Assembly (NCBI GenBank): GCA_044892505.1
Contig: CM097884.1
Coordinates: forward strand, 40,176,001 to 40,240,000
DNA length: 64,000 nt
Reading direction: 5' to 3'
DNA from: Schmidtea nova
Taxonomy: Eukaryota
Below, one piece after another: positions 4,198 through 27,214 of this stretch (the stretch's first letter is position 1; the number at the start of each line of letters is the position of its first letter). A program made the position numbers and the translations under genes. The notes beneath the pieces are model-generated. The model worked only from the letters and a program-made list of their open reading frames with translations. It was not told the origin of the DNA and did not search any database.

Positions 4198-4200
4198 TTA

Positions 4201-4210
4201 CCCCCCATCC
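4201..4210 (-). promoter_or_regulatory. Polypurine tract
   Basis: GGATGGGGGG 3 nt before the 3' LTR on the minus strand. Confidence 0.7.
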
Positions 4211-4286
4211 AGTAACGCGGAGCGTTTTTCTTAAAAGAAAACAAAAAAAAGATTTTAGAGGTGTTAGTATTGGTGCCCGCTCTAAG

Positions 4287-7200: not shown

Positions 7201-7784
7201 TTAGGCATACCGTTATTGGTGACTATGACGTGTAGAAAAGAGGGAGTTTGTTTGTGATTGTTTGATCTCTTTTCGACGTTTGGGAACGTCTTTAGTAATT
7301 GTTGTATATAGCAAGGTGTGGCGGGTAAGACATTGAGGGCGTCGCTACAGAGGTGGTCAAGAACTTGAGCTCTAGGTGTGTGCTGTGAGAGGATTAATTT
7401 GCGTTCTCTGCAATCAGGGAGTAAACCTTCGGCATCAAGAAAATCGGCACCTAAGAGTGGATGAATCACCTCGGCGACTTGGAATGTCCATGAAAAAGTT
7501 TTGGACAGACCAGGAATTTGGAATATTAAGTTTTTTGTTCCAATAGTGGAAAAGTTTTCGCCACTGGCTGTCCGGAAGGACCTTTTTTGATTATTATCAA
7601 TTCCGAACCGATTAGGTAGGAATGAGATGATGGAACCGCTATCGATAACGAAGTGAATGGGGGCATCGACTTCATTAGAGTTCTGGGAATGAGGTACGGC
7701 GGGAACAGAAAAGAGTCCACAGGTTATGGGATCGCCATCAAAAACTGTGGGGGAGTTCGATGGCGTTTTCAGTTTTCCGAAGGC
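4287..7784 (-). CDS. pol: Pol (protease, RT, RNase H, integrase with GPY/F motif, Pro/Thr-rich tail), -1 frame relative to gag
   Basis: The frame is open from 7784, upstream of the track's start at 7469. Motifs: FVIDSG, YIDDIL, TTDAS, H..H/C..C, VHVDLVGP, TDQG, VERFHRTLK, RYEGPY. Confidence 0.93.
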   Translation of the reverse strand, partial: AFGKLKTPSNSPTVFDGDPITCGLFSVPAVPHSQNSNEVDAPIHFVIDSGSIISFLPNRFGIDNNQKRSFRTASGENFSTIGTKNLIFQIPGLSKTFSWTFQVAEVIHPLLGADFLDAEGLLPDCRERKLILSQHTPRAQVLDHLCSDALNVLPATPCYIQQLLKTFPNVEKRSNNHKQTPSFLHVIVTNNGMPNRERMRPLAPEKLTLVKEEFNKLLEAGTIHRSNSPWASPIHVVTKKDGSIRACGDYRRLNKVTIHDSYPMPLISDVLSRLPEATIFSTLDLKKAYHQIPVAPEDIPKTAVITPFGLFEYKYMPFGLRNAAQTFQRHIDNILGDKKYMVAYIDDILIGSKDATEHLEHIKEVFRLLHNNNLQINLDKCSFFQSEIKFLGHLVSTSGVRPLPERLDTIRNFSRPNTVSQMRSFLGTVNFCHRFIPRISEVTAPLSALCSGPKHSLLPWNDELERAFQSVKDAMSTAQSLSYIKNNLPLFLTTDASNIGIAGVLEQNNTGCQEKIEFFSRKLTTQEQRYSTFDRELLAIYESVRHFRYLLEGRSFSIQTDHKPLVHMMEMKTPSPRQGRQISYLSEFAFTITHLPGRQNIVADYLSRNLVATITTEPIFTDDVLRSLPPSPKDLSFFQNTTVFDKGIYYDNALSGNIRPILQEKLRREAFNHTHNLHHPGTSATYNLLRSRVIWPSMRQDVKDWCESCLGCQQHKIHRHTRPPLHNFPTGNRFEVVHVDLVGPLPPDNGYTHILTMLDRKTRFPVAVPLKSISAYIVASAIIEHWISIFGVPLHFITDQGPQFESHLFKQLSTQLGIKHLRTSTYHPQTNGAVERFHRTLKTSLRILSTSKNWTKALPFVLLGWRNTPSKTTGSSPAQLLFGTNVMLPNELVELNGEPTLENLADARNHFLSLDSNPNFSMSNTYKPYIPRSFDRATHVWIRSIADIGLKPRYEGPYSLLQILDNGTAKVSINGMDTIINLSRLKPAFGYMEEDPSPTNITSHAETQDFTPPNPPDPIQTHNLQRDNPTVVRLPQQFLSPPKLLPIKNEITPSLITNHPTTQLEIENPSPSTLQPIANQKQIPIQRTTQSSQPDNTWFIPATILDQQTQSTPTSKYTLKPILKSSNKIPKAQQIKKVRIAEWHRTKRIGENPNLPIRLSRTNDL
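7717..7778 (-). promoter_or_regulatory. -1 ribosomal frameshift signal (G_GAA_AAC plus predicted H-type pseudoknot)
   Basis: Gag/pol overlap is only ~5 codons. After a 6-nt spacer come stem CGCCATCGAA/TTTGATGGCG and loop CCACAG pairing with downstream CTGTGG. Confidence 0.7.
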
Positions 7785-10498
7785 TTATTATACGAATTTT
7801 GATTAACTTTACTGGTATTGTGATTACCAGTATGGAAACGGCAGCCTTCCAAGCATGTTTTGGCCTCGGTCTTAAATATTGCGTGATAGATGCAAAGGTT
7901 GCGAGGCAGGCATGTTGGAAGTCGGTTGTTCCACCTACAACCGACATAGCAATGTTGGGCTTTGTCTCCATACGTCTTATGGTAGGAGCATATGAGCCCT
8001 CGTGCAGATGTGGACCGATGTCGTTTTTGATTGTTGTCACGACTGTCTGTTCGACTTCGACCTCGGGTGTGTAGACTTGCGTCTAAATTGTCCATCCTCG
8101 CTGTTAAAGCAGCTATGGCGCTGACTAGTGCTCCTAATTCGGCGTGTGGGAGGCTTGTTGTTGCGACTACCGGTGATGGAGTAACAGGTGACGTGTTGAT
8201 TTCCACGATCTTGTCGGCAATTTTGGCCAGTTCTTCCAATGTTGTGTTTGGAACAACGGCCAGAATGGACTGTGCTGATGTAGGTAGTGCTTTTAGAAAG
8301 AACCTACGGAGTAGAGCGTCGTCTTTGGTAAGACCAGCCTGGATCCTCTCGAGTTGTTCCTTGGCTCGCTTGAGGAAGGCGCTTGGTCTTTCATTATTGA
8401 GAGGTTGATTTCGGAACCAAGCCTCATATAAATGATCTAATTTTGGTCGGTAGGCGTCTAGCACTGCCGATTTCAGTGAGTTGTAGGGCTCACTTGCCGT
8501 GGCTGCGGTTGCAATGGCGGTGGACAATGTGGTGTAAATAGTGCTTGGAAGCATGGACAAGAGTGCACCAAACTTCTGCCCTTGAGATTGAGTGGGTAGA
8601 AAGGTTGGAGTCACTTCTAGTGCCAGGAACCACGTTTGTGGGGAGCCAACGCCGTCTAGGAAAAACGGTATTGGGGTAATAACTGGTGTTGTTTGTTGTG
8701 TTGGCGGTTGTATGTGACTGATTTCACAGTCTGTGTTAGCCTCATCAGTTTGCATTCCTCCAGTCAAACGGGGAATAATGTCGAAATAGGTGGTGATGAC
8801 TGGGGTATGTGTCGCCGATTGGGACTTCTTGACAAAGAAGTGGCGGTGTGTTTCCTTTGGGACGCCAATTGCTAGGAGCAATGAAGACATTGAGGACAAA
8901 TGTGACTTCGTCGGACACAGAGGTTGCCATCCGGAAGTCTTGTTAGGACACCGGAAGAGGAACTTGTGTGATACTTGTTTCCTCTTAATGTTTAAAAACC
9001 CGGTTGTTCTTATGATGTGGTTTCCATGTACCGTCAATTCAGTTAGTCCCGCCCAGGATTGTAGCGCCTTCATTTGGGAAGGAATAGGAAAAATAATAAA
9101 TGTGGGAATAGAATAAAATAAAGTGTTATTTAGGGTAATATAAATGTTACTGGAGGGAGGGAGTAACTTCTGACACCAATTTGATATACCGGAAACCACA
9201 CCAAGGTATTCAGATTTTTGGTGTGGTTGCCGATTCATCAATTTTATTTTTGTTCCCTGGCTGATTAATTTACATAAATTTACAAAAAAATATGAAGGTA
9301 CTTTAGTTTTGTCGGATAACAGGGAAAGTAGGATGCCGGGTCGAATCAAAGCTCTATCGAAACCATCGGGTAATCTCCCAACGAGGATCTCATAAGATTG
9401 AATATCCACGTAAAAACGATACACACATGGATTTGATAGTACAGTACATACGCTAACTACATTCACTTTCGGATCTTGATAGGACATCAACTGACAATAA
9501 AATCGTAATTTTCTTAAGATTAATAAGTTCATCATATAAGAACCTTCAAAAATGCATATTGTACAGACAATGAATACAAACAATCCGAAAATAATGTCGA
9601 TGTAATAATGTTGGACGATCATTGTCAAAGAACTATAGAGAGTAGCATTCAACATTAAAGCCATACCGGTGAACGGCATTTGGCCTTCCGACTTAAAACA
9701 TCTACTAGAAGAATCACTTTTAAAAGGTTCGAGCAATTCCCGGGCACTTAAACTCAATCTGCCATAACTATTCACTGAAACCGGATAACGGGGGCCTTTA
9801 AAGTCACTCAAGCACATTTTTGGAGTCAAAATAGGCAAGTTATCCACCAAGAACTCGATCCTTATTTCCCACGGGAGTTGATTAAATATCAATTTTAAAC
9901 GGAGAGATATATTCTGTACACATATTTCGATCTTTATAAATTTCTCTCTCTCGGTAACAAATTCAATGTTATCACTAAGATTGACATAAAAGTAGAGCAC
10001 AATAACAACTTTGGCATAGCATTGTTTATTAAAAATATTTAGTTTTAAAGTTTTAGATGGTTCCATAAATCCCTTCATTTCTAAGGCGACTATTTCTGGG
10101 ATTTCAGGCAGAATAATCACTGGCACGTTAGCGATGTAAATCGGCTGATAGCGCTTACCATGCGATTCAACTAATCTGCTGATTCCATGTTTATCATTGA
10201 TGCGGAAATATCCCGACATTGATTCCTTGTACTCCGTAGTGATGTATCCATAGGAATTGATAGGCACTTCCAAACATTTACCGTTAGTTGAAACTTTCAA
10301 TGGTCTGACATCTAGAAAGAATTTGTAATAAAAGACGTTTATTTTCCACTTCATATTGACAAATTCAACATTATAAGTTGCCGTAGCATTAACAGATTCA
10401 ATATTCCTGGCGATGTCTGTCAGTCTAATATCTGCTGGCAACAAGTTGTTTGTAAAGATACTGTGGATGAATTCCAAAATATAAATTAATTTTATCAT
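7769..10498 (-). CDS. gag: 909-aa LTR-ORF / Ubl / Gag fusion; Gag proper starts at Met582 (8755)
   Basis: Uninterrupted ORF crossing the LTR end and the PBS. PRLTGG precedes MQTDE. Gag motifs: PFFLDGVGSPQTWF, RPSAFLKR, FFLKALP, and two CxxHx9Cx3C knuckles. Confidence 0.9.
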   Translation of the reverse strand: MIKLIYILEFIHSIFTNNLLPADIRLTDIARNIESVNATATYNVEFVNMKWKINVFYYKFFLDVRPLKVSTNGKCLEVPINSYGYITTEYKESMSGYFRINDKHGISRLVESHGKRYQPIYIANVPVIILPEIPEIVALEMKGFMEPSKTLKLNIFNKQCYAKVVIVLYFYVNLSDNIEFVTEREKFIKIEICVQNISLRLKLIFNQLPWEIRIEFLVDNLPILTPKMCLSDFKGPRYPVSVNSYGRLSLSARELLEPFKSDSSSRCFKSEGQMPFTGMALMLNATLYSSLTMIVQHYYIDIIFGLFVFIVCTICIFEGSYMMNLLILRKLRFYCQLMSYQDPKVNVVSVCTVLSNPCVYRFYVDIQSYEILVGRLPDGFDRALIRPGILLSLLSDKTKVPSYFFVNLCKLISQGTKIKLMNRQPHQKSEYLGVVSGISNWCQKLLPPSSNIYITLNNTLFYSIPTFIIFPIPSQMKALQSWAGLTELTVHGNHIIRTTGFLNIKRKQVSHKFLFRCPNKTSGWQPLCPTKSHLSSMSSLLLAIGVPKETHRHFFVKKSQSATHTPVITTYFDIIPRLTGGMQTDEANTDCEISHIQPPTQQTTPVITPIPFFLDGVGSPQTWFLALEVTPTFLPTQSQGQKFGALLSMLPSTIYTTLSTAIATAATASEPYNSLKSAVLDAYRPKLDHLYEAWFRNQPLNNERPSAFLKRAKEQLERIQAGLTKDDALLRRFFLKALPTSAQSILAVVPNTTLEELAKIADKIVEINTSPVTPSPVVATTSLPHAELGALVSAIAALTARMDNLDASLHTRGRSRTDSRDNNQKRHRSTSARGLICSYHKTYGDKAQHCYVGCRWNNRLPTCLPRNLCIYHAIFKTEAKTCLEGCRFHTGNHNTSKVNQNSYNKPSEN
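9166..9178 (-). promoter_or_regulatory. Primer-binding site, tRNA-Leu type
   Basis: TGGTGTCAGAAGT, 3 nt after the 5' LTR end. Confidence 0.85.
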
Positions 10499-10799
10499 AA
10501 TAAAATCGATTAGTAATAAGTTTTAATAAATTTGTTTAAAATATTTATTTTGTATTAATTTGTGCGCGGGTTAACCGCTTAACAATCTCTTTTAAACAAT
10601 GGGCAATAAAATATACAAATAATAAAATTTTTACACATTTAATAATTCTTTCGCATAATCCTAAACAATGTACAATAAAATTTACAAATAATAAAATTTT
10701 CACATGACTAACAACCTTTTTACAACTCCGATTCACACAATTTCGGAGGTACATAAAACACGCATGAACATCTATTTATGGTGTCCAAAGAACATTACA
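9182..10799 (-). repeat. 5' LTR (1618 bp), containing ~440 codons of ORF
   Basis: TGTAAT...ATATCA; direct repeat of 2580-4197. Confidence 0.95.
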
Positions 10800-12255: not shown

Positions 12256-13332
12256 TGTTCGGTTCGTATCAGTGGTTTACGACGAACACAGAAATATAAA
12301 TATATATTTGATACTTTAGTTTGATTATCGGACTCCAAACGATAATCCGCTTATTAATTATAAATAAATTATATGTTTTAGGTTGTGTGTAAAGAAAAAC
12401 AAGATCTAATTCCTTTTAATAATATGTATTGTGAAATATGTAAATCAATGTACAATATAATAAAATAGCTGCTAAGCAAAAGTTAGAGAATCGGTTATAC
12501 AAACCGTCCTAAGATGTTTAAGAACGAAAGCTGGACCTAAAAGGCTCAACAGCTCCGACTAAATGAAAGGACACAAGATGAGGGGTTTCCCTGTAGTTTA
12601 ACCGCGATAGTGACAACCCAGAATTGGTTGTCACTGTGACTTAATAATTTTCCCTTCTAATAATTTATTATTTAACGATTTTGCTGAAGGGGAAAAATAG
12701 TAATACAACTATTTCCCCGTGATCGATTTATAAGATTTAAAACAAAACTAGGAAAATTACCAGCTACTAAAGATTATTCCAATTTAGGGAAATTATCACG
12801 AACGAAATTCAAGCTAAGCTTCTTGTAATACTTCTGCCGTAAAATTAATTTCTCCAATTCACAAATTTGTCAAACTAAAATTCTAAAATTCACTTCGGTA
12901 AAATTTATGTTCTGTAAACACTTATGTTTCTCTCTCTACTTCTGTCAAAATTACTTTCTGTTTCAACTGATTTTGCAATCAGTTTATATACAAATTATTT
13001 TCTCTCATGTAGGTCTAGACGACCACCTATTACTAACTACGTGTAGGTCGAAATTGACCTTACAAAATATTACTTTTAAAGTAATTTATTATTACTATAT
13101 ATATCTTATTATTACTATTTAAATTTCTTATGTATTTATTTATTACTATATTTATTATATATTATTTAATTATTACTGTATTTAATCTATATTTATTTAT
13201 AGTAATTATTTATTTATTTTCTATTTATCTATCTATTTATAGTATTTTTTTTAATTACTATTTATATTTATTTATTTACTTATAATATTTAATTACAAAA
13301 ACCCCGAGATCCCTTGATCTCGAACCCTAACA
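12256..13332 (-). repeat. 3' LTR (1077 bp)
   Basis: Direct repeat of 26138-27214. Confidence 0.96.
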
Positions 13333-13334
13333 TG

Positions 13335-13344
13335 TCTTCCCCCT
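13335..13344 (-). promoter_or_regulatory. Polypurine tract
   Basis: AGGGGGAAGA 2 nt before the 3' LTR. Confidence 0.75.
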
Positions 13345-13627
13345 AACAAGATTTTCGTCCCGAAAATTAAAGCGGAAAAGACAAGAAGGTTCAGCAGCCA
13401 AAAATAAAAAAAATAAAACAACAACACATGCATATATACATAGAATGCACTTGGTCAAAATGAGTCTCATAAAACACATAATACATAATTAATGTTGATC
13501 ACAATCGATATCAAATAATAATTGTCTGTAAGCGTTGGATTGTTGATCACATAGCCGAAATGCTAATTGTTTGATTGATAGTTGTCATAGCTTATAGCTA
13601 GACCTTGAATTGAACGTAGCAGAAATG

Positions 13628-15592
13628 CTAGTTATCCTTCGCGAATAGGTTTTGAGCTGCTCTCTTGCGAATATGCGCTTGCTCGTTCTTGATGCGATCT
13701 TCCACTATATCTGGTCTATAGCTGACCACCAATGTTTCGCGTGTTTCGACTTCCTTATATACCAAAGACGAAATCACGTATGATTTTCCGTTGGCCTCCA
13801 ATACGCCATAGTAAGGGAAGTTTGAAACTGATGATTGGTGTACCGGTTTCCCGTCGTATTCTTTTATCCGAGGTACCCAATTTCTCTCTGGTCGCTGCCA
13901 AAAACTAGGGTCTTCATTGTCCAAATCCTGGGGTATCTTTGCTGAATTTCCCGTTCCAACGAAATCCCCTTCTCTTATAATAATAGGTTCGCCCTTAACC
14001 TCCGGAATCTGTTCCATATCGGGTGGGATGAATGCTGTTTCGATTAAATCTTTGTCTTCCGTCGAGATGGGATTTGGTACTTTCTTTTTGATCTTTAGAT
14101 CTTGTAACCTTACAACAGGTTCTTGACTTTTCTTTGGGGGTGACTTTTCTACTGAAGTCAATTTTTTAAAAGTCTTAGTAACTTTTTCCAAGAGCTTGTT
14201 CTCTTTCTTTGGTGGATTTTCTGGCACGATCTTTGTAATTGTACGGCTGTCTCCGTGTAAAGTTAAACGCATCTCTGTTTGCTCCTCACCCTCGCTTTCG
14301 CAGGTGGCGTAATCGTCTTCATCAGCTAAGGATATAGCTGGAGGGGATAGTGATTCTTCCTCAACTATCTTTTGCAATTTGGTTGATAATGGTTGTTCCT
14401 GGGGTAAGCTCTCAATAGCTTTCCTTTTACTCGTTTCTTGTGGCTGTATTGTATGAACCATTTTGACTTCTGATGTAATCGTCCCACTACGATTACCTGG
14501 GGTAATGTCATCTACCCAAACTTCTCTCAGTTTAAGGTAAATATTACGTGTCGTTTCCACGTCATTTTCCGTTTTCAGATCTGAACGGTTTAGTTCTTCT
14601 TTTTCGAGAATTGACTTTGATAAATACGCGAGTCGATAATGTCCGTTACATTTCTTTAGTTCTCTCGCTTCCAGGCATTTTGCTGCTCCTAGTTCTCTAA
14701 TGCCCAATACTCGTTGAGGGTGTAACTGGACTGCTTCCAAGAAATCGTTGACTTGGAGACCTATTAGAATTTTCCCATCACATAATTTTCTAATACGGTC
14801 TGCGCAATCCTCTCCATCAAATTGTCCGATGATTTCTTTTTCGGTCATACCATGCGCGTGCGATTGGTAATGTTTGACCTGGTTTCTGGGTGTAACCACC
14901 GTGTTTAGTATTAAATCACCACAGTAGTTTGCTATCGAAACAGCCACCAAAGCTGGCTTTAAATAATCTCGCAAAGTTGCGTAATGCGCTGCAACAAATA
15001 TTGACAATCTATCTTCTTGATTGGGGTGCAGATTCATCCGAACAAAGGATTTGAATGATTTGAGATCGTTCTCATTCACATTATAGGTCCAGGCAGGTTC
15101 ATTTTTCCACAATGATTGCACTGCCTTGCTAGGTTCCAAAATCTCTAATACCACAATAGTATTATATCCGTCACATTGGATGGAGATATTCTTTTCTCTG
15201 CCATCTCCGTTACTAATTTCTAGAGTTGATTCTGGTTGAAGTAGGATGGGTCCTGTGGCTCCTGCCATGAAGATTGTAAAGGGTTTATTGATCGCGTGAA
15301 TCAGGAGATGGTGAGTAAATGTTGATCTGTTAAATTCCGCCATGTGTTCAGTCAACCGGGTGTTCTCACGGCTGGTAATTGTGACTATGCACATTTGTCT
15401 CTTAGGCGATCCGAGAAACTTAAAATTGTTTGGGATGCCGGTGCAGTGCCCGTAATACCAATAGCGACGACCTTTCCGTGCTTCTGCGGATATCGCTTTT
15501 TCGATGTTTCGATAAATCAGTTTTTCCTTCTGTACTGTTTGCACATCGATAGTGCTATAACGCTGCTTGTATTGTGACACTTGATGCTTCAT
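13628..15592 (-). CDS. Accessory ORF2 with REX4/ISG20-like DEDDh exonuclease-fold domain (ExoI acidic residues absent); likely from a spliced mRNA
   Basis: ALVAVSIANYCGDLILNTVVTP..VKHY....HGM..KILIG..ENDVETTRNIY resembles REX4 motifs. A strong acceptor TTTTTCTTTCAG lies 2 nt before the ATG at 15592. Confidence 0.75.
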   Translation of the reverse strand: MKHQVSQYKQRYSTIDVQTVQKEKLIYRNIEKAISAEARKGRRYWYYGHCTGIPNNFKFLGSPKRQMCIVTITSRENTRLTEHMAEFNRSTFTHHLLIHAINKPFTIFMAGATGPILLQPESTLEISNGDGREKNISIQCDGYNTIVVLEILEPSKAVQSLWKNEPAWTYNVNENDLKSFKSFVRMNLHPNQEDRLSIFVAAHYATLRDYLKPALVAVSIANYCGDLILNTVVTPRNQVKHYQSHAHGMTEKEIIGQFDGEDCADRIRKLCDGKILIGLQVNDFLEAVQLHPQRVLGIRELGAAKCLEARELKKCNGHYRLAYLSKSILEKEELNRSDLKTENDVETTRNIYLKLREVWVDDITPGNRSGTITSEVKMVHTIQPQETSKRKAIESLPQEQPLSTKLQKIVEEESLSPPAISLADEDDYATCESEGEEQTEMRLTLHGDSRTITKIVPENPPKKENKLLEKVTKTFKKLTSVEKSPPKKSQEPVVRLQDLKIKKKVPNPISTEDKDLIETAFIPPDMEQIPEVKGEPIIIREGDFVGTGNSAKIPQDLDNEDPSFWQRPERNWVPRIKEYDGKPVHQSSVSNFPYYGVLEANGKSYVISSLVYKEVETRETLVVSYRPDIVEDRIKNEQAHIRKRAAQNLFAKDN

Positions 15593-15778
15593 ATCTGAAA
15601 GAAAAATAATTAACGTTAATATCAGATATACTGATAGGCCAATATTGGCTAAAAAGAAATGCATAAATCTCGATTTACGGGATCTACTTATGCTGTAAGT
15701 TAATGCTACTCGGAGCTCAACAAGATTATAGATTTTAATATATATATAAATACAAATATGCGATTTTATCTGTAATTG

Positions 15779-18700
15779 TCATAATCTCGTCATCATAATC
15801 CCATCAACCGACTCAATGGCCTGACTGAAGAATAGTTTCATCCAAACTCCCATTGCTATCAATGTAGTGATCATAGCTAATACTGCTGACGTAATAATCC
15901 ATACCCCAACGGGTAATTTTCCCAAGTGAGTAATGGGGTTTACTTCATTAACTTCACACTGACAACTTTTAATATAGCTTTCTGTTGATACTGTTGGTTT
16001 TACCATTTTCAATCCTTTCAATCTCTGCCATATTGCAGGATGAATGACGTAACTTTCTTTCCGTATCAATGATGTAACCGATTTCATTGTCGTCGATGAT
16101 TGTGGTAATTTCAAAGAGATAACTTCATAAAATACCTCATTCCATTCATCGACTCCTGGCTTTTGTTTATTATTCATATAAGTGATATGAGCTTCCCACT
16201 CCACTGAGCTGTTCCACTTGAGATTTTGTTTCTCAATATCTTCATTTAGCCACAATTCTTGTACTATTTCCTTGTCGGAATGGATTTCTATCTTTACTCT
16301 ATCCACTCCTTGTTTTGGTTGGCTGAAGGTAATCATACCTTGTTGGATATTTATTCTAACTTTCCTTTTGAAATCTGCTGTCTTCAACTTCCATTGTGAC
16401 TTTGAAAAATCTGACCATCGTCCAAACATAAAATGTTGAACAAGTATATCTAACAGATATTCCTTTTCTGCTCGTAAGTCCTTTATGACTTTCACTCTTG
16501 TGTTTGAATCCAATGTAAAATGGAAACAACGTCGTTCGCAAAACGAGAACTTGAATTTTGTATCATTTTCAGCTAATGATATTATCCTAAATTCCTGGAA
16601 AGATCTTCTAAATGCGAGATCTTGAATTTGTACCGCTGTTGGAACAAATGTCTTTACACAGGATATAAGGCAACTTATTATTACCAAAAACGTAACTGAT
16701 TTTGGCACGCCTCTTGATCGTAATGGATATCTGTCTGAGACTGGTTCTGACCCTTTATCCTCCTTTTTCTTAATCGGATCTTTCTCCGTGACCGCAACTT
16801 TCTTGCATCTGTTAGCATGTACCATTATTGGTTCAGCTTTTCTATTTGCTACTAATTGCAAGATTAAATTCGTGTCTGTGGTTCTCAAAACCTCATATGG
16901 TCCTTTGAAGTTTCTCATTAATTTAGGTGATAAGCCCTTTTTATTATAATGGCTTTCCAACATCACCTTGTCTCCAACTAACATGCCATGTCCTTTGGCT
17001 TTCTTATCATGATAATCTTTCGACGCTTCCTGACTGAATTTTATACTAAGACCTGCTTTTGTCCATGCTTCTTGCATTCTTTCTCTCATTTCCATGAGAT
17101 AATCCTCTTGGTCTAAATACTGCGTTGCTTTTGGGAAAAACAACAAGTCTATAGGCATTTTACTTTGCCTTAAATACATGAGATAGAACGGCGTTTGTCC
17201 CGTACCCTCATGAACAGCATTTCTGTATGCGAATAGGCATGATGGAATATGTATATCCCAATCCGTTTGCCCTGAATTTACGTATGATGCTAGCATATTT
17301 GCGAGCGTTCCGTTAAATCTCTCTACCAATCCGTCTGTTTGTGGATGGTATGGAGAGGTATTCAGTTTTAAAATGTCGAAATAATCATTTATTCCTTTTA
17401 GCAGATTACTCATGAAATCTGCTCCTCTATCTGTTAGTAGTTTTGTAGGTACTCCATACCTAAAAACAATTTGCTCTACGAAAATCCTGGCTATCGTATC
17501 GGCCTTGTGATTCGGTATCGGATAAGCCTCCGGCCATTTCGTCAAGTAATCGCAAAATACCAATATGTATTTGTTACCACTATTTGACTCTTTGAATGGC
17601 CCTAAAACATCCATTGCCGTCATTTCCATCGGTGTGGATGGTACTGGCATTGGTTTCATTGGCACATGCGGTTTCTTCCCCGTATTTCTCCTGGTGATAC
17701 AGATCTTACATGTCTGACACCATTCCTGTACGTCTTGTTTGATTGTCGGCCAGAAATATTTCTGCTTCAACCTTGACAATGTTTTCCTGGAAGACAAATG
17801 CCCTCCCAGTGCTCCATCATGATATTGTAACATCAAAGCTTCGCGATATTTCTTAGGGACCATTATGACATTATCCCTTACGTCTACATATTTGACTAAT
17901 CCTTCTTCTAGAATAAATTTGTCTCGATTTTTCTCCCAATATTTATTAAATTCCGTCGGTATGAACTTTGCTTCTAAAGCCTGTCTGATTTGGTTTATCT
18001 CTTCATCCGATTGTTGTGCTGCCATTAAATCCGCGAGTCTGTTTGCTTCTCTTGTAAGTGCGAAGATTGTTCCTTCTAATCTTCCTTCCTTAACGTCTTC
18101 TGCTTCATCACCCTGGTCCATTCGAGAAAATGCATCTGCATTCCCATTTTGGTGTCCTTTTCGGTAATGTATTTCGATGTCGTATGGCTGCAAGATCAAT
18201 GCCCATCTAACCAATTTTGATGTGTCCATAGTATGCTTTGTTAACCACTGTAATGGTCTATGATCCGTATACACAATGATCTTTCGACCCCATAAATATG
18301 TCCTGAATTGGTGTATAGCATACACAATTGCTAATGCTTCTAATTCGATAACTGCGTAATTCATTTCATGTGGTTTTAATCCTCTGCTAGCATACGCTAT
18401 GGCATATTCGTCTCCTAGGTCATCTCTTTGACCTAACACAGCACCAATACCCCGAGTGCTGGCGTCCGTCATGACCAAAAATTGTTTCTCAAAATCTGGA
18501 AACCGTAATATAGGAGGTTCCACGAGCATCCTCTTTAGCATATCAAATGCTTCCTGTTGTTCTTTTCCCCATACAAATTTGACATTTTTGCCCTCTAATT
18601 GTGTCAGAGGAAATGCTATTGCCGAAAAGTTCCTGATGAACTTTCTATAATATCCCACTAAGCCCAAAAACCCTTTTATATGTTTGACTGTCTTTGGCTC

Positions 18701-21700
18701 TGGAAAATTCTTTGCTTTCTCAACATTTGCTGGATCTGGTTTTACTCCATCCTTCGAGATAATGTGACCGACATAGACTACCTCTGATTCGGCCCATTTA
18801 CATTTCGATGGTTTTACCTTAAGATTTGCATTAATTAACCTTTTGAATACGTCCTCTAAATGTTCTAAATGTTTTTCCAAATCTGGAGAAAATACTATGA
18901 TGTCATCTATGTATACCATTGCATGATGAACATCCATTAACATTAGATTCATGGCTCTTTGAAACGTTGCCGGCGCTCCTGTGAGACCAAATGGCATTAC
19001 TGTATATTCGAAGTGTCCAAGGCTTGTAGAAAAAGCCGTAATTGGTATTGTCTCCTCTTTTAACTTGATTTGGTAAAATCCCTTCTGAGCATCCATCACT
19101 GAGAAATATTTTGAATTTCTCATGCGTCCGTAAATGTAATCCAGTAATGGTAATGGGTGACTATCCTTGCAAGTTGCTTCGTTTACCATTCGATAGTCGT
19201 TGCATAGTCGTACCGTTCCATCCTTTTTGGCCACCACTATCATTGGTGACTGGTATGGTGATTTACTATGCCTGATGATGTTATGTTTTAACATCAGTTT
19301 TACCTGCTTATCGACAGGTTCTTCCAAGCTAAACGGAATTCGATACGGTCTCAGTTTTATTGGTTTCGTGTTGTTAAGAACAATTTCATGTTCCAACAAG
19401 TTCGTCTTTCCCAGATCATATTCGTGCTTGGCGAATACTTGATCATATTTTCTTAATAACATGTTGACTTGGATATTCTCTCTTCGTGAAAGAGCTTTGC
19501 TATTTGCCGTTGGCGCATCATAGTACTCGATGTCTGATTCTCTATTTTCTGCCTTTATTGTCAGGACAGATCCTCCATTTGGTAATTGATCCGACTTTGA
19601 TACTCTCCCTACTCTTGTATCTGGGTACAATTTTAATGGTTTTATATCTAAATTGGCTACCCGAATTGGTATTCTGCCATTTTCAACTTTACCAATGCTA
19701 TGCGTAATTGGTAGATTATATTTTGCTGAGAACCTTTCATCTGGTTCGAATACAACTTCTCCTTCCCACTGTTCGCTAGTGGACACGAAACATACTGTTT
19801 CTGCTCTGGGTGGTATTATCATCGTATGGTCGATGAAAACTGTATCATCATTATAAACTTTTCTTTTCTTACCGATTGATCTAACTAACAATCCGGTAGC
19901 ACAGTCAAATACAACTCCTTTTAATCTTCTTAAAAGATCCATTCCTAGTAGACATTCTACTGGACAAGTTCTCATGACTATAATATCATGACGAAATTCT
20001 TGGTCACATAGCTTGATGTTACAAGCTAGAGTACCAATAATATTCAATGATGTGCCTGTAGCACCTGTTAGCGAAACTCTTGAGGTTTCCATTGATTCCA
20101 ATTCTTTTTGATTTAATAGTGTTGCCTCTATGATGGTGCCGTCTGCTCCTGAATCTATCACTGCATTAACTGTGTGTCTGTTTATTTTTATCTTTATCAT
20201 GGGTTTCTTATCCAAGTTCACCCCATTTGCCATCAAAATAGTAGCATGCGTTATCCCGATGGTATTTGCTCTGAATTTCTCTGCTTCATCTTGTTCGGTA
20301 TCACTCAATTTTGGATTATATTCCTTAAATTTAGCTTTTATTGCTTCTAACGACTCGATAGGATACAGTTTCCCTTCATTTTCTAACGATAATGATATGC
20401 TTTTACCAGTCTCTCGAGCATCTTTGTCGAGAATTTGTTGATGTTTAGAAATGTACATTTTGTTTCTTGGAGTGGTTAAAGCATAATTTTGTTTGCCCTC
20501 TCCTGATGTCTTTTGAAACTCTGGCGATTCCCCCTTTGGCGCTGTTGGCAAGCTTCTAAGATATGGTAATTGCATATATCTTGGGCTTCTTTTCAATCTA
20601 GGTGATGCTGTATTGATTGTAAATTTCTGGTCTGCACTATCGTATTCATCTTCTGAAATCATACTTTTGTCGAAAATCTGTTTTGTCGCTTCGTAAGGTG
20701 GTTGATAATCCCGATATTTCATTTTCCTTAACTGATGATTCGGTTTTTTATTGTAGTTTCTTTTTCGACTTCTACTTTGCCTCTGAACTGTATTAAGAGA
20801 GTCTCCATTACCTCCTCCTTCCGAATTGTTATCGTCCCGATAACTTGTATTACCCTCCATTTCGATTCCAATAATCTCGTGTTTTACCAAGCTTCTCTGT
20901 TTGATTGTCTTTATTTCTTTACGATGATGTTTAAACAATGCAAATTCCGCACACATAGGACACAATCCTAGTATCAACTTCCAAGACCATCCACCGATTT
21001 TGAATATACTGTATGTGGAGATTAATTGTGTTATTATTAACTTTAGAATTACGAATATTGCATATATTCCTGAGCAGCCTGCCACGAAAATACCAAAATT
21101 GGTAAACCTTCCCCATATTTTCATCATCACATTTTTAGCTGCTTCTTTATAATGATCTGGACCGAATAATAAATTGTAATCTGGTCTCATTTCGTTTGCT
21201 TGGTAAATTGTTCTTATGATTTCAGTGATACCTCTTTCTCTTACTTGAGGGAATAGCAATGTCTGTCTTGCCTCCTCAATGTCTGCTGAAGTGTAAATTC
21301 CTCCTTGTGATAATTCATCGAGTGATTTAAATTCCATGTTTTCCTCGAGTTTCGTGACTTCCAATGTTTCCACCTTTCTATTAGATGGTTTTCTGTCAGG
21401 TAATGAGATCCATCTATCATTTACCTTGTATAACGGTGATATTGCTGGATTGCAAATTGAAGGTTGAGGCTTTTGTTTTTCATCCAAAAGTCTCCTCGTA
21501 ACTGGCATTACAAATCGTATTTTGTTTTGATATGACACTGGTAATTCTAGAGTACATTCATTATACCGAGTTAATTGTACCTCTATGGGTTGACATTGAT
21601 AGCTGTATATAGCTTCCCCCATAATTCTGCCAAACATTCCATCTTCTAGCAACATAGGTGTCACTAGATCCGGATTCACAATTGATATCGCTAATCGATT

Positions 21701-24700
21701 TCGAACTATTTCGCGATTTAGTTTGCAATCATTGAGTATTACTTCCTGATACATTTCCTGCATTTGTCCTTGCAGATCATGATATAAATAATCTATTTTA
21801 TTATTTATATAGTTCGTGATTTTGATATCCTGGCTGTGAATATTCTTGGCTTTTTGGATGAATGTTTTTGACAAATATAATCCTTTATAGTTGGTCTCAT
21901 ACACCACTTTTCCGCATTTTGTCTTCTTATCTTTTCTGACAAATCTGATTGCATCTTTCTTATCTTCTGATACTAATACTAGAGGTGTGATTTCCTCACT
22001 AATATCCTCTTTTTGCTGTTTGTTGATCCTTTTCAACGTCTTTTCTTTATCCCAAATTCTTTCTCTTTTGGGTAAATCTCGATACTTTGTCCCGTTCAAC
22101 TTATGGAAATTAATTTTCTTTAGTAATGACAATTCGCAATGGTCTAGTATTTGATCGTATAATAATGTAATGACCCCTGTTCTGCAGCTTCCAAATTTCG
22201 CAAGGCACTGAGGGTGTGCCATTAATCTTCCTGATAATACATCGAACGTTCCTTCGTATTCTCTTAATTCGATTGAATAGTCCTCGATATCTACGACAAA
22301 ACTTACCAACTCCGATCCGCGAGTTTTCTTTCTTCCCGTACAGGTACCATCTGATCCGATTGATCCTCCTCGTGTAATGGTTACTCCCAGTGTTTTTCCT
22401 ACTTCCGCGGCGATGGTTACCTCGTTATCGATTCTTAAAGTACCTTTTCGAAAGGCGTCTAGACAATCCTCTGGCAATATGTTGACAGGTCTAGGTATTA
22501 GAGTGGCTGATAGAAAAGCTGTATAGCTGTGTGAACCACAATAATATTCAAACGTTGCTCTTTGGACTCTACATTCTCTTATCTTAGTTCTGAAGAATTC
22601 ACTTTCTTGGTAGACATAGTATTCGACCTTTTCTCCTGTTTGGACCTTTTCTGGATATGCCTCTTTGCACTCAATTGCATCTACGAGCGAATATATCCGA
22701 GCTAACTTTGGATCACTGCAATCAAACGCTGTCATTGTGTTTGTCTGTTTCATTATCCCCATCATTACTAAAAACATTAATATCATATTCGTCATATTCC
22801 CCATTCCTCCATTTTCGAGGTGGTTGTTATTCATAGCCTCTTCCACAAATTCATATCGTGGTTTATGTTTCTCCTCTTCCCAGAAATTATTTTCACTCAT
22901 CCACGTTCCGAGATAATGCTCCGTTATCTCCGTGATCTGGTCTATTTCTCGATTAATAAGCTTCTTCTCATTGCCTGCGCGGGCTAAAGCATCTTGAATC
23001 AACATAGATAATGCTGTCACTATTTTTCCTTTAGATAACCCATCTTGTATGAGTGTCTCTAACATACTCTGTATCTCGTTTTGCGGTACCCCTCTAGGTA
23101 ATCTCCTCATCGTCTTCGCGATTGACTGTGTTACTTTATCCACTTGAATTCCTTTAATCCGAGTAATCTGCCATTCTGGCTTTAATATTCCTATGATCTG
23201 TTTTAATCTCTTCCATGTCAGAGATTTTTCTGGTATATGTACACCTTCGTCTCTCATATCAACATCCCTGGCTATTCCTGACAGAGTTTTCATCTGAACC
23301 TGTTTAATGGTTTCTTGGTTTAATTGCTCCGTTGGTGGAGGTTTCATTTGATCTTTCCTAGGCCTTCCTCGCCTATCTTTCTTTGTCTGCCATGCTGGCC
23401 TGATAGTTTCTACCGCCTGAGAAGTTGAAGCTCCCACGTTAGTTTCCTCATTATTGAGTCTGATTTCCTCTTCTCCGTGATTATCGGCATCGATATCTAC
23501 ATTAAATGGTTGTGTTTCAACATTACCAGTGACCATTTCATCTGGTAACCGTAATGCTGACCATTGAGATTCAGGTGGCTCTACGGGAATGATTGCTACC
23601 GTTGTAGTTTCAAAAGGTAGACATCCCACATCTACTAAATATTCATCATCATCCACTTGTCCTCCATGAATCATAATCAAGAATATACCGGTAGTCTGCC
23701 CAGTATCTATTAAATCCTTTCTCAACGTTATCACTTTGCTAAAACAACGATATAACCTCGTCATGGGTTCTTTTCCCGATATTCGAATGTCTAAAGTTAT
23801 CATGCCTTGTCGATGTGCTTGATGACGTATTGCTGTTCCATTTTTTCTCATTAACATTTTTATTTCTGTTTGAAAAGAACTAGTTTCTTTTACTACAGGT
23901 AGTAATATAGGAATTATATTCTCCAATGATTCTACTGGTATGCGCAATACCAACATCCAGTCTAATATTTCCTTGATTGTTTCTCCATCCCTCGGAGATT
24001 TCTGCAGCTCTATCTTCAGACGTTGCTCTATTTGTTGGACCTCCTCCAACTGTGCAATTTCCATTTGTGTGAGTAGAAACACACTGTCTTGATCCACTAC
24101 TGGGACCGATATTCCTGTCAGTTTCGTTGTGAGTTTCGTTACCCTTCCTGGTAATACACCATTTTGTAGTAGTGTTTCCCCAACTACTAACTTTTCTCCA
24201 TATAAATAAAAATCATATCTATTATGTTTCAATTTCATCATTGTATCTGACAACTTATCTGTTCGACATCTTACATTCATGTCGATGTTAAACTCCTGCT
24301 CCTGAGGAAGTTTTATGTTTAAATGCGAATCCTGAAGATCCCATTCATGCTCCATTGCAGTTCCTATCTTTCGTAGGATTTTATGTATGTCGCTATTATA
24401 CCTTGGATCATCTTCGACCTGAGATATTAATTGTAATATCTTTCCAATTTCACTATTCTTGATATCACCTTGTGATAATTTCTCTAATTCTCTAGTCAGT
24501 CTCTGCTGATACTCATATCTGGAATCCACCAGTTTTAAACATTTTGCTAGGGTATCTGACCCTTTCTTGGCCTTTGTTTCCTTGAACAAAGCCTGGTCGA
24601 ACTCGCTCAGTATGGTACTCATACTGGGTTCGTCATCATTATCAGAATTTGTCTCTGATTCTATTACCTCATGATTCTCGCTGCTGGAATCCATGGGTTC

Positions 24701-26056
24701 ACTATTTCCTTGCTCATCTGTGTAAGCATCATGATTTTTCTCAGCTGAAATCATCAAAACTGTTCCTTGCCCAACTGTGTGAGCATCATCGCTTTCCTCA
24801 ATGGGATTCATTATAACTGTTCCTCGCCCATCCATGTGAGCATGATTTTTCTCAGCTGAAATCATAAAAACTGTCTCTTGCCCAACTGTGTGAGTCTCAT
24901 TTATTTCTTCAATTTTATTCATCAAAACTGTTCCTCGCTCATCTGTGTGAGCATGATTTTTCTCAGCTGAAATCATAAAAACTGTATCATCTCGATCCAT
25001 TAGCCGTGCTAATCGATTTTTCTCCTCCTGGATTTCCATTTCCAGTTGTTGCAAATACGTCAATTCTTTATCGTGATTGACCATGAACGTAGTTTTCGGC
25101 TTGCTGACATTACCACTATTGGTAATCCTACTATTCGTATTATTACTCTGATTTTGAGGACACGACCTCAGAATATGCCCGAATTTTCCACATCCGTGAC
25201 ATTTTATCTTCCCTGATGAATTCACATCATCCCTTTTAATATTAAAATTCCCATTCGTTGGGAGATTCCTAACTCTACAAACGGAAGCAACATGCCCTCT
25301 GCGTTTGCATTTATCACACTGCAAGTTCGTGACTCTACAGTTCTCAACACTATGATTATTCATACCACATTTAGTACACTGAATACCCCTACGAGTATCA
25401 GCTACCTTCTTACTGTGGCAATCTTTTGATATGTGCCCTTTCTTATGGCAGTTAAAACATTCAATTGCTGGCTTCTCATTATTTACCATAAATGATGTAG
25501 CTTTTTCTAAGCTGCTTTCGATTACGACAGCTTTTCTTGTTAATTCCCAAAAATCATCTCCCGTGTGGAGAATCAATGCATTTCTCATTACATTTGTGAA
25601 TCCAGCTAATAATTGGTCTTTAACCATAGCTTTAGTTGCATCATTCCAGGTAGTTCTGAGCCCAAATGCTCTTTCTGCTAATAACAATAATTGATAGGAA
25701 AATTCTCCTACATGTTCATTTGCATTCTGCTTCCTGTGATAAAATTGTTGTCGGAAAATTCTACTTGAATCTCCCGGTAATATTCTAGCCGTTAGTGATT
25801 CTCTCATCTTTTCCCATGTACCTGGTTTATCTGCTGCTGGTAACGCCATAATATCATTGTAATTTTCCCTTGCCATACCCTTAAGGTAAATTGGCAGTCT
25901 TTGTATCATTATTGCATCTGGATACCCATAGGCCTTTGCCATCTGATAATACTCTGACATAAACTCCGGAAATTCCCCTGGATCTCCGCTAAATGCCTTG
26001 ACAGGTAAAGCGGGATATCTAGCAAAAACATTATTCTCTTCAGCCATGTCCTCCAC
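15779..26056 (-). CDS. gag-pol: 3425-aa polyprotein: Gag (CA, 4 CCHC), repeats, 2x(helical+Ubl), AT-hook, chuvirus/gB-like glycoprotein, protease, RT, RNase H, integrase, second membrane protein
   Basis: Four CCHC knuckles (~25160-25460), RGRPRK, hydrophobic signal then AFDC (~22720), TM (~20930-21100), VIDSGAD, YIDDII, MTDAS, HHCC, DDE core, YPLRSR plus signal, C-terminal TM. Confidence 0.93.
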   Translation of the reverse strand: MEDMAEENNVFARYPALPVKAFSGDPGEFPEFMSEYYQMAKAYGYPDAIMIQRLPIYLKGMARENYNDIMALPAADKPGTWEKMRESLTARILPGDSSRIFRQQFYHRKQNANEHVGEFSYQLLLLAERAFGLRTTWNDATKAMVKDQLLAGFTNVMRNALILHTGDDFWELTRKAVVIESSLEKATSFMVNNEKPAIECFNCHKKGHISKDCHSKKVADTRRGIQCTKCGMNNHSVENCRVTNLQCDKCKRRGHVASVCRVRNLPTNGNFNIKRDDVNSSGKIKCHGCGKFGHILRSCPQNQSNNTNSRITNSGNVSKPKTTFMVNHDKELTYLQQLEMEIQEEKNRLARLMDRDDTVFMISAEKNHAHTDERGTVLMNKIEEINETHTVGQETVFMISAEKNHAHMDGRGTVIMNPIEESDDAHTVGQGTVLMISAEKNHDAYTDEQGNSEPMDSSSENHEVIESETNSDNDDEPSMSTILSEFDQALFKETKAKKGSDTLAKCLKLVDSRYEYQQRLTRELEKLSQGDIKNSEIGKILQLISQVEDDPRYNSDIHKILRKIGTAMEHEWDLQDSHLNIKLPQEQEFNIDMNVRCRTDKLSDTMMKLKHNRYDFYLYGEKLVVGETLLQNGVLPGRVTKLTTKLTGISVPVVDQDSVFLLTQMEIAQLEEVQQIEQRLKIELQKSPRDGETIKEILDWMLVLRIPVESLENIIPILLPVVKETSSFQTEIKMLMRKNGTAIRHQAHRQGMITLDIRISGKEPMTRLYRCFSKVITLRKDLIDTGQTTGIFLIMIHGGQVDDDEYLVDVGCLPFETTTVAIIPVEPPESQWSALRLPDEMVTGNVETQPFNVDIDADNHGEEEIRLNNEETNVGASTSQAVETIRPAWQTKKDRRGRPRKDQMKPPPTEQLNQETIKQVQMKTLSGIARDVDMRDEGVHIPEKSLTWKRLKQIIGILKPEWQITRIKGIQVDKVTQSIAKTMRRLPRGVPQNEIQSMLETLIQDGLSKGKIVTALSMLIQDALARAGNEKKLINREIDQITEITEHYLGTWMSENNFWEEEKHKPRYEFVEEAMNNNHLENGGMGNMTNMILMFLVMMGIMKQTNTMTAFDCSDPKLARIYSLVDAIECKEAYPEKVQTGEKVEYYVYQESEFFRTKIRECRVQRATFEYYCGSHSYTAFLSATLIPRPVNILPEDCLDAFRKGTLRIDNEVTIAAEVGKTLGVTITRGGSIGSDGTCTGRKKTRGSELVSFVVDIEDYSIELREYEGTFDVLSGRLMAHPQCLAKFGSCRTGVITLLYDQILDHCELSLLKKINFHKLNGTKYRDLPKRERIWDKEKTLKRINKQQKEDISEEITPLVLVSEDKKDAIRFVRKDKKTKCGKVVYETNYKGLYLSKTFIQKAKNIHSQDIKITNYINNKIDYLYHDLQGQMQEMYQEVILNDCKLNREIVRNRLAISIVNPDLVTPMLLEDGMFGRIMGEAIYSYQCQPIEVQLTRYNECTLELPVSYQNKIRFVMPVTRRLLDEKQKPQPSICNPAISPLYKVNDRWISLPDRKPSNRKVETLEVTKLEENMEFKSLDELSQGGIYTSADIEEARQTLLFPQVRERGITEIIRTIYQANEMRPDYNLLFGPDHYKEAAKNVMMKIWGRFTNFGIFVAGCSGIYAIFVILKLIITQLISTYSIFKIGGWSWKLILGLCPMCAEFALFKHHRKEIKTIKQRSLVKHEIIGIEMEGNTSYRDDNNSEGGGNGDSLNTVQRQSRSRKRNYNKKPNHQLRKMKYRDYQPPYEATKQIFDKSMISEDEYDSADQKFTINTASPRLKRSPRYMQLPYLRSLPTAPKGESPEFQKTSGEGKQNYALTTPRNKMYISKHQQILDKDARETGKSISLSLENEGKLYPIESLEAIKAKFKEYNPKLSDTEQDEAEKFRANTIGITHATILMANGVNLDKKPMIKIKINRHTVNAVIDSGADGTIIEATLLNQKELESMETSRVSLTGATGTSLNIIGTLACNIKLCDQEFRHDIIVMRTCPVECLLGMDLLRRLKGVVFDCATGLLVRSIGKKRKVYNDDTVFIDHTMIIPPRAETVCFVSTSEQWEGEVVFEPDERFSAKYNLPITHSIGKVENGRIPIRVANLDIKPLKLYPDTRVGRVSKSDQLPNGGSVLTIKAENRESDIEYYDAPTANSKALSRRENIQVNMLLRKYDQVFAKHEYDLGKTNLLEHEIVLNNTKPIKLRPYRIPFSLEEPVDKQVKLMLKHNIIRHSKSPYQSPMIVVAKKDGTVRLCNDYRMVNEATCKDSHPLPLLDYIYGRMRNSKYFSVMDAQKGFYQIKLKEETIPITAFSTSLGHFEYTVMPFGLTGAPATFQRAMNLMLMDVHHAMVYIDDIIVFSPDLEKHLEHLEDVFKRLINANLKVKPSKCKWAESEVVYVGHIISKDGVKPDPANVEKAKNFPEPKTVKHIKGFLGLVGYYRKFIRNFSAIAFPLTQLEGKNVKFVWGKEQQEAFDMLKRMLVEPPILRFPDFEKQFLVMTDASTRGIGAVLGQRDDLGDEYAIAYASRGLKPHEMNYAVIELEALAIVYAIHQFRTYLWGRKIIVYTDHRPLQWLTKHTMDTSKLVRWALILQPYDIEIHYRKGHQNGNADAFSRMDQGDEAEDVKEGRLEGTIFALTREANRLADLMAAQQSDEEINQIRQALEAKFIPTEFNKYWEKNRDKFILEEGLVKYVDVRDNVIMVPKKYREALMLQYHDGALGGHLSSRKTLSRLKQKYFWPTIKQDVQEWCQTCKICITRRNTGKKPHVPMKPMPVPSTPMEMTAMDVLGPFKESNSGNKYILVFCDYLTKWPEAYPIPNHKADTIARIFVEQIVFRYGVPTKLLTDRGADFMSNLLKGINDYFDILKLNTSPYHPQTDGLVERFNGTLANMLASYVNSGQTDWDIHIPSCLFAYRNAVHEGTGQTPFYLMYLRQSKMPIDLLFFPKATQYLDQEDYLMEMRERMQEAWTKAGLSIKFSQEASKDYHDKKAKGHGMLVGDKVMLESHYNKKGLSPKLMRNFKGPYEVLRTTDTNLILQLVANRKAEPIMVHANRCKKVAVTEKDPIKKKEDKGSEPVSDRYPLRSRGVPKSVTFLVIISCLISCVKTFVPTAVQIQDLAFRRSFQEFRIISLAENDTKFKFSFCERRCFHFTLDSNTRVKVIKDLRAEKEYLLDILVQHFMFGRWSDFSKSQWKLKTADFKRKVRINIQQGMITFSQPKQGVDRVKIEIHSDKEIVQELWLNEDIEKQNLKWNSSVEWEAHITYMNNKQKPGVDEWNEVFYEVISLKLPQSSTTMKSVTSLIRKESYVIHPAIWQRLKGLKMVKPTVSTESYIKSCQCEVNEVNPITHLGKLPVGVWIITSAVLAMITTLIAMGVWMKLFFSQAIESVDGIMMTRL
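24715..24995 (-). repeat. In-frame 111-bp tandem repeat (MISAEKNH units)
   Basis: ctcagctgaaatcat recurs at ~24740, ~24851 and ~24962. Confidence 0.85.
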
Positions 26057-26116
26057 AACTTTTGTCTTTTTAGGAGCTATTTTGTTTATAACAATATGCC
26101 CACTGATAATAATTGT

Positions 26117-26134
26117 ATCACGTCGGGCTCACCA
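26117..26134 (-). promoter_or_regulatory. Primer-binding site, tRNA-Trp type (18 nt)
   Basis: Plus strand ATCACGTCGGGCTCACCA matches the eukaryotic tRNA-Trp 3' end ATCACGTCGGGGTCACCA at 17/18. Confidence 0.85.
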
Positions 26135-26137
26135 AAA

Positions 26138-27214
26138 TGTTCGGTTCGTATCAGTGGTTTACGACGAACACAGAAATATAAATATATATTTGATACTTTA
26201 GTTTGATTATCGGACTCCAAACGATAATCCGCTTATTAATTATAAATAAATTATATGTTTTAGGTTGTGTGTAAAGAAAAACAAGATCTAATTCCTTTTA
26301 ATAATATGTATTGTGAAATATGTAAATCAATGTACAATATAATAAAATAGCTGCTAAGCAAAAGTTAGAGAATCGGTTATACAAACCGTCCTAAGATGTT
26401 TAAGAACGAAAGCTGGACCTAAAAGGCTCAACAGCTCCGACTAAATGAAAGGACACAAGATGAGGGGTTTCCCTGTAGTTTAACCGCGATAGTGACAACC
26501 CAGAATTGGTTGTCACTGTGACTTAATAATTTTCCCTTCTAATAATTTATTATTTAACGATTTTGCTGAAGGGGAAAAATAGTAATACAACTATTTCCCC
26601 GTGATCGATTTATAAGATTTAAAACAAAACTAGGAAAATTACCAGCTACTAAAGATTATTCCAATTTAGGGAAATTATCACGAACGAAATTCAAGCTAAG
26701 CTTCTTGTAATACTTCTGCCGTAAAATTAATTTCTCCAATTCACAAATTTGTCAAACTAAAATTCTAAAATTCACTTCGGTAAAATTTATGTTCTGTAAA
26801 CACTTATGTTTCTCTCTCTACTTCTGTCAAAATTACTTTCTGTTTCAACTGATTTTGCAATCAGTTTATATACAAATTATTTTCTCTCATGTAGGTCTAG
26901 ACGACCACCTATTACTAACTACGTGTAGGTCGAAATTGACCTTACAAAATATTACTTTTAAAGTAATTTATTATTACTATATATATCTTATTATTACTAT
27001 TTAAATTTCTTATGTATTTATTTATTACTATATTTATTATATATTATTTAATTATTACTGTATTTAATCTATATTTATTTATAGTAATTATTTATTTATT
27101 TTCTATTTATCTATCTATTTATAGTATTTTTTTTAATTACTATTTATATTTATTTATTTACTTATAATATTTAATTACAAAAACCCCGAGATCCCTTGAT
27201 CTCGAACCCTAACA
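26138..27214 (-). repeat. 5' LTR (1077 bp)
   Basis: Direct repeat of 12256-13332. Confidence 0.96.

Follow-up and report, generated by a model that had tools for sequence, protein, structure and literature searches.

A predicted tandem fibronectin type III membrane module with a C-terminal PDZ-binding motif follows integrase in a planarian gB-type errantivirus

Ty3/gypsy elements in which an envelope gene lies between gag and pol have been published from flatworms, nematodes and bryozoans (Chary and Hayashi, PMC13524379), and the same Gag-Env-Pol order has also been described for Burro (PMC6431247). The gB of herpes simplex virus (HSV) needs gD, gH and gL, and the entry of gB-type errantiviruses is unexplained (PMC13524379). 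In the Atlas virus of hookworm, a Gn-like protein and Gc are encoded after Pol, Gn being the more variable, putative attachment partner of Gc (PMC9094657). The Env of HTLV-1 carries an SSL PDZ-binding motif through which it binds DLG1 at virological synapses, and motifs of class I are defined as S/T-X-hydrophobic (PMC4810129). From the MDG1 group, sORF2 is known as a retrotransposon membrane protein found at cell contacts and linked to direct transfer (Voichek et al., PMC11952523).

The window analysed here, a 64,000-nucleotide stretch of Schmidtea nova contig CM097884.1, contains an intact Ty3/gypsy LTR element of approximately 14.9 kb on the minus strand (12256-27214), bounded by identical LTRs of 1077 bp each with TG...CA ends and a 4-bp target duplication, ATAT. 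One unbroken frame (15779-26128, minus strand; 3449 codons) encodes Gag, gB and Pol followed by a further module after integrase, which occupies the final 317 codons of the polyprotein (15779-16731, minus strand), in frame with Gag-gB-Pol. The gB/chuvirus-type Env (PF24664, E = 5e-89) sits between the CCHC knuckles and the protease, and the LTRs, the target duplication and the order protease, reverse transcriptase (RT), RNase H, integrase (IN) are those of a Ty3/gypsy GAG-ENV-POL errantivirus of the gB type. Its features are listed below in coding order, family A being the family of the window copy.

26138..27214, minus: 5' LTR
about 26116-26133, minus: primer-binding site after the 5' LTR, 18 bases
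22802..26047, minus: Gag, which has CCHC knuckles, followed by domains without assignment, one stretch of them weakly Bcl-2-like
21020..22801, minus: fusion glycoprotein of the gB/chuvirus type; an internal signal of its own at 22727-22801, transmembrane helix at 21020-21091
16793..20212, minus: Pol (protease, RT, RNase H, IN)
16712..16729, minus: Y-x-L/I-R-S motif (YPLRSR) closing integrase, retained in 7/7 lineages
16649..16711, minus: internal signal-like sequence with basic n-region; h-region 16658-16696
16373..16630, minus: predicted fibronectin type III (FN3) domain 1 of seven strands, modelled at pLDDT about 87-92; contains the sequon NDT and, in the turn between strands C and C', CERRC
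16559-16567, minus: sequon NDT
16103..16372, minus: predicted FN3-like domain 2, pLDDT about 60-88; sequon NSS
16205-16213, minus: sequon NSS
15911..16102, minus: stalk of 64 aa, the most variable part; CxC at 15956-15964
15839..15910, minus: predicted transmembrane helix (19-mer 2.17; a helix in the model)
15782..15838, minus: predicted cytoplasmic tail, 19 aa
15782..15790, minus: C-terminal class I PDZ-binding motif T-R-L, at the polyprotein's only genetically encoded C-terminus
15779-15781, minus: stop codon
13628..15592, minus: ORF2 (Met at 15592), DEDDh-exonuclease-like, catalytic acidic residues apparently replaced in family A
12256..13332, minus: 3' LTR, 1077 bp, identical to the 5' LTR, TG...CA; target duplication ATAT

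The primer-binding site, presumably resembling the 3' end of tRNA-Trp, has 972 exact matches in the genome against none for a reversed control, which points to a large clade. The Bcl-2-like domain (22799-23311, minus strand) adjoins the gB signal on its upstream side and scores under the Pfam cut-off (E = 0.027). Elsewhere in the window, a second, env-less gypsy element (about 2578-10720; Pol 4287-7784, Gag-like region with DUF7041 7769-10522) is flanked by long direct repeats near 2578 and 9180. Long inverted repeats at 35515-36284 and 47338-48154 (512 bases at 99%, about 11 kb apart) are possibly the ends of a large DNA transposon, and exact direct repeats occur at 58534-59188 and 30086-30540, with spacings of 355 and 255 bases.

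In the module, YPLRSR leads into a signal-like segment, after which come an ectodomain of 246 aa, a single transmembrane helix and the 19-aa tail. The initial annotation had noted a signal-like stretch, the sequons NDT and NSS, Cys pairs and a C-terminal transmembrane segment after YPLRSR, and each of these is found there on the minus strand. The h-region, VTFLVIISCLISC (16658-16696), is the hydrophobicity maximum of the whole polyprotein (Kyte-Doolittle 13-mer 2.69); a basic n-region and an h-region of 13 aa recur in all lineages, and, with cleavage judged by the -3/-1 rule, the putative -1 residue is Ala in families B-F and the distant element P0004 and Cys or Thr in family A. No hydrophobic stretch lies between signal and transmembrane helix (19-mer maximum 0.42), and basic residues follow this single helix near the C-terminus, as in a type I membrane protein. 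The sequons and the Cys pairs (CERRC and CQC) are present but are the weak details of the layout: two sequons compare with 1.4 expected by chance, neither is kept in place in family B, and CERRC is absent from family B and has a counterpart of similar kind in just a part of the family C copies. Of the Cys pairs, A and B have only the membrane-proximal CxC in common. It is the recurrence of the layout in six other lineages that places it beyond chance. A link of YxLRS to chromatin binding, an idea drawn from the chromatin-binding Gag of foamy viruses, found no support and was set aside.

Within family A the module is retained and constrained. A search of the genome returned at least 127 matches (125 of 339 candidates scored), of which 25, counted by hand and including the window copy, are whole and stop-free in frames of at least 3400 aa; the element thus has several intact, near-identical copies. 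Rather than being absent or unconserved in other copies, the module was matched within 1.5 kb of all 86 family-A integrase hits. Silent variants outnumber replacements by 77.5 to 24.5 (pN/pS 0.08; 24 of 29 copies), similar to integrase (0.11; 25 of 29 copies), in a set of the 29 best protein matches to the module, a choice that biases the ratio downward. Across these 29 copies no variation occurs in the signal, at the four Cys of the ectodomain or in the three C-terminal residues, and 12 of the 26 variable positions fall in the 64-residue stalk.

The same layout was found in five sister families (B-F) and in P0004, which supports the view that the element has, besides gB and not related to it, another membrane protein of type I that is conserved. 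Family B shares with family A 83% identity in integrase, 60% in gB and 28-29% in the module (E = 4e-20); the decayed family C is 33% identical to A in the module; and families D, E and F are 43-45% identical to A in gB, 53-55% in RT and 63-65% in IN. P0004, with a gB 48% identical to that of A, also has YxLRS, signal, ectodomain, transmembrane helix and short tail, and P0005, which ends before RT, lies outside this comparison. Profile comparisons gave no link of the A/B/C ectodomains to those of D/E/F or P0004, and any homology between the A/B/C and D/E/F sets is hypothetical. Comparisons among D, E and F gave ectodomain dN/dS values of 0.10-0.17 (bootstrap upper bounds below 0.26, dS close to saturation), the corresponding values being 0.03-0.05 in gB and 0.02-0.03 in RT and IN; the ectodomain is under purifying selection and is at the same time the fastest-changing folded part of the polyprotein. 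The A-B dN/dS is saturated and was left unused, and the contrast in identity between these families (module 29%, gB 60%, IN 83%) is, judging from the sequences, the pattern of a host-facing module.

The second frame, ORF2, which looks like a DEDDh 3'-5' exonuclease, was compared among the window (13628-15592, minus strand), L031:2416-4521 and L064:7331-8875. Its acidic residues are retained in D, E and F (DAE; HSALED in F) and apparently replaced in A, B and C, yet the latter keep approximately 30% identity to the D/E/F proteins. Pfam RNase_T scores under its cut-off in family F (E = 0.001) and was not detected in ORF2 of the window copy. A splice-acceptor-like run directly precedes the ATG of ORF2 in family A, and CCAAT- and TATA-like boxes lie between both ORFs in D/E/F; four runs of unknown kind, with flat cover and no usable joints, are silent on expression or splicing. 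Downstream of ORF2, two family-B copies (L031 and L032, about 5750-6500) enter a trinucleotide microsatellite of several hundred bases, perhaps within the LTR.

A nine-row alignment of A, B and C ectodomains was used as input for AlphaFold, the best model reaching a pLDDT of 80.6 and a pTM of 0.64 (pLDDT 54-65 for the other four); a first model, from three full-length rows, was poor (pLDDT 41) and was used for domain 1 only. A Foldseek search with the predicted structure, one of the checks proposed with the initial annotation, matched tandem FN3 domains: 190 PDB matches were obtained at E <= 1e-3 (best E = 6e-7), and each of the best 50, those listed, comes from the FN3 array of an adhesion, matrix or receptor protein. 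Fibronectin FN9-10 aligns with the model at a Foldseek TM of 0.60 over 186 columns, and VIA gave a Z of 10.1 and an rmsd of 4.0 over 166 aligned residues for the same pair. Domain 1 superposes on FN3 with an rmsd of 2.5-3.1 over about 80 residues, domain 2 being less certain. The viral structure matches listed are mostly of FN3 type, including a cyprinid herpesvirus protein; gH, gD and Gn are not among the best 50 structure matches listed, which does not by itself speak against such a fold. A language-model Atlas, to be read at lead level only, points for family A to FN3/cytokine-receptor (0.85-0.88), and to FN3 alone in the case of family D (0.83-0.85). The ectodomain is thus predicted to comprise two tandem FN3 domains. 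The likeness in predicted fold and spacing extends to fibronectin FN9-10, tenascin, CD148, NCAM, Dscam and cytokine receptors, from whose FN3 arrays the module differs in its identity of only 4-18% and its lack of RGD and of canonical cytokine-receptor motifs.

At the level of sequence, no FN3 signal was obtained. The module never exceeds the family cut-off of Pfam fn3 (PF00041), and a profile of host FN3 domains (50 domains, drawn from 20 of 92 matches, with 18 seeds left once two containing stops had been dropped) scores it no better than shuffles or controls; no host donor gene emerged from own-genome searches or from this profile. Outside its own genome, no homologue was found in Pfam, a 5.8-billion set (at near and longer lengths), 1.84-billion representatives, PDB sequences or viral contigs. 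A PDB sequence match to Elf1 (E = 0.01) conflicts with the model and was taken as chance, and metagenome contigs yielded no gB relative. In class I cytokine receptors, WSxWS is membrane-proximal, four conserved Cys lie in domain 1 and the tail carries Box1. The module does not fit this class: its WSDFS stretch lies in domain 1 and is absent in family B, the Cys are not kept and the tail has 19 aa.

The C-terminus of the module reads TRL in A, TEV in B, SQL in C (in three of the five decayed copies with a transmembrane helix found), TFV in D and E and TIV in F, all of the class I form, while P0004 ends in SVLL and does not match. The motif is therefore present in six of seven lineages against a background of 3%; as the six are related, this reflects conservation and not six independent draws. 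The flanking residues have turned over. A W-x-x-Y-x-E-T-x-V pattern is common in the same register to B and D/E/F, whose ectodomains do not align, and its W-x-x-Y-x-E part is lost in family A. The PDZ-binding motif supports a cytosolic C-terminus and with it the type I topology. To judge from its sequence, the motif would fit a role at the cell surface better than one in the virion, and a host-directed decoy would be served by it equally well. The gB protein cannot carry such a signal, because its tail runs on into Pol.

A shared fold by itself says nothing of function, and class III fusogens such as rhabdovirus G and GP64 bind receptors unaided, so that gB need not have a partner. The predicted tandem FN3 ectodomain in combination with the PDZ-binding C-terminus nevertheless points to a cell-surface adhesion or attachment protein, and we assign a probability of about 0.5 to the module being an attachment or adhesion protein made together with the fusogen and acting at cell contacts or on particles. 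That the module forms part of the virion, or binds receptors as a partner of gB, as the initial annotation suggested, is plausible as a hypothesis. As an attachment protein, the module would be produced from a polyprotein threading the ER membrane in-out-in-out-in, with four crossings formed by the gB signal, the gB transmembrane helix and the signal and transmembrane helix of the module, so that Gag and Pol would stay cytosolic and gB and the FN3 pair would enter the lumen. Signal peptidase and the protease of the element would free the parts in equal amounts. The FN3 pair would then engage a partner on the surface or in the matrix of a neighbouring cell, or might do so from a particle; through its tail, the protein would attach to a host PDZ scaffold and be held at cell contacts, and the module would help the gB-type fusogen to carry the element between cells. 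In D, E and F there is no Met between the GPY motif of integrase and the signal, which makes a conserved independent start unlikely and favours the polyprotein route; a spliced message for the module may be an alternative.

We tentatively consider a broader proposal, that flatworm Gag-Env-Pol retroelements are two-component infectious agents in which a class III fusogen is combined with a captured, cellular-type FN3 adhesion receptor whose PDZ anchor builds a virological synapse and sets the cells entered. If true, a retroelement would have independently invented the herpesvirus-style split between attachment and fusion, and the fast-changing FN3 module would be the address label of each family.

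Among the other explanations, one that we consider unlikely is that the module is a genuine cofactor of entry and contacts gB on the particle, serving as its chaperone, shield or trigger much as gH/gL/gD do in herpesviruses or Gn does in phleboviruses. Its location in the same frame as gB makes equal amounts likely, it is never lost in family A, and the dependence of HSV gB on helpers and the paired Gn-like and Gc proteins of Atlas virus provide precedents (PMC13524379; PMC9094657). On the other hand, ectodomain identity between D and F is 66% compared with 92% for gB, and the ectodomain measures about 250 aa in A/B and about 330 aa in D/E/F, lengths that differ while gB can be aligned over its whole extent; an obligate interface with gB would not be expected to change so fast or to vary in length next to a gB that is conserved. 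A cofactor needs no conserved PDZ motif, and many gB-type elements are reported to have only the usual three ORFs (PMC13524379).

Equally doubtful is a host-manipulating membrane decoy with no part in entry, in which the FN3 pair would soak up a host ligand or block a receptor, including for the exclusion of rival elements, and the PDZ motif would displace junction or polarity proteins. Two FN3 domains, a transmembrane helix and an enzyme-free tail do resemble a truncated receptor, cytokine-receptor clusters occur among the Atlas leads and the structure matches, and WSDFS is found in domain 1; moreover, related elements bear host-interfering cargo with BIR, Bcl-2-like and ankyrin domains (PMC6431247), and viral PDZ-binding motifs often sequester PDZ proteins (PMC4810129). 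However, the top structure matches are extended, adhesion-type FN3 pairs (the domain angles of the model being weak evidence), the WSxWS-like stretch occupies the wrong domain and family B lacks it, and neither the own-genome searches nor the host FN3 profile revealed a donor.

It is very improbable that the module is a membrane anchor and sorting signal for Pol and the assembling particle, with the ectodomain as a spacer. The signal would indeed tether integrase to the membrane until cleaved, and the signal, transmembrane helix and last residues are the best-kept features, but an ectodomain dN/dS with intervals well under 1 and a folded two-domain module in three families at about 30% identity speak against a mere spacer. 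A decaying captured host fragment without function, as might be imagined from the absence of homologues in public protein sets and the fastest change within the polyprotein, is largely refuted by a module that is open and present in all 86 family-A contexts, by the excess of silent changes over replacements and by a motif kept across lineages.

The attachment or adhesion role, if correct, bears on the question raised by the survey of gB-type errantiviruses, where entry is unexplained and HSV gB needs helpers: the module is a candidate helper in the same polyprotein, under selection and in a high-copy family (PMC13524379). It offers two handles, the FN3 ectodomain for ligand searches and the PDZ motif for scaffold binding, and in a planarian host it bears on how such elements gain access to stem cells or the germ line. 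A decoy role, too, would make the module retroelement cargo of a new kind.

The type of element is already known, and its FN3/PDZ module has apparently not been described. Searches of the openly accessible literature listed no description of an FN3 or PDZ module downstream of integrase in gypsy elements, and the main text of PMC13524379 contains none of the words 'fibronectin', 'FN3', 'PDZ' or 'exonuclease'. Smed_errantivirus_4, a GAG-ENV-POL element of the HSV/gB type, has a Ty3/gypsy Pol, a gB-type Env between Gag and Pol and a length of about 14.9 kb, as here, and its printed gB fragment is, compared by eye only, the nearest printed relative of the gB of this element; by eye also, the gB of Smed_errantivirus_1 matches families D/E/F (PMC13524379). 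The tree made here took in no published element. Burro/GYPSM1 likewise places an in-frame Env between Gag and Pol, preceded by a Bcl-2-like domain, and carries extra cargo, but exceeds 30 kb, with BIR, MATH and ankyrin cargo, and the consulted parts of its description mention no fibronectin domain or second membrane protein (PMC6431247). sORF2 is a short fusogen of Env-less elements, while the present module is larger, FN3-like and placed beside an intact gB (PMC11952523).

Atlas virus shares with this element a single polyprotein with two membrane glycoproteins, a fusogen and a more variable, putative attachment protein. It is a belpaovirus of Gag-Pol-Env order with a class II fusogen, and both of its proteins are adjacent after Pol and were captured together, whereas here the two flank Pol, the fusogen is of class III and the partner has a predicted cellular-type FN3 fold (PMC9094657). 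HTLV-1 Env and Tax show that the C-terminal S/T-x-hydrophobic motif occurs on retroviral proteins, the TEV of Tax being the ending of family B (PMC4810129, PMC3395148); in Env the motif is on the fusogen itself, and here it is on a separate protein (PMC4810129). As working models for the module, HTLV-1 Env and the Gn-Gc pair of Atlas virus come nearest, although it belongs to neither family.
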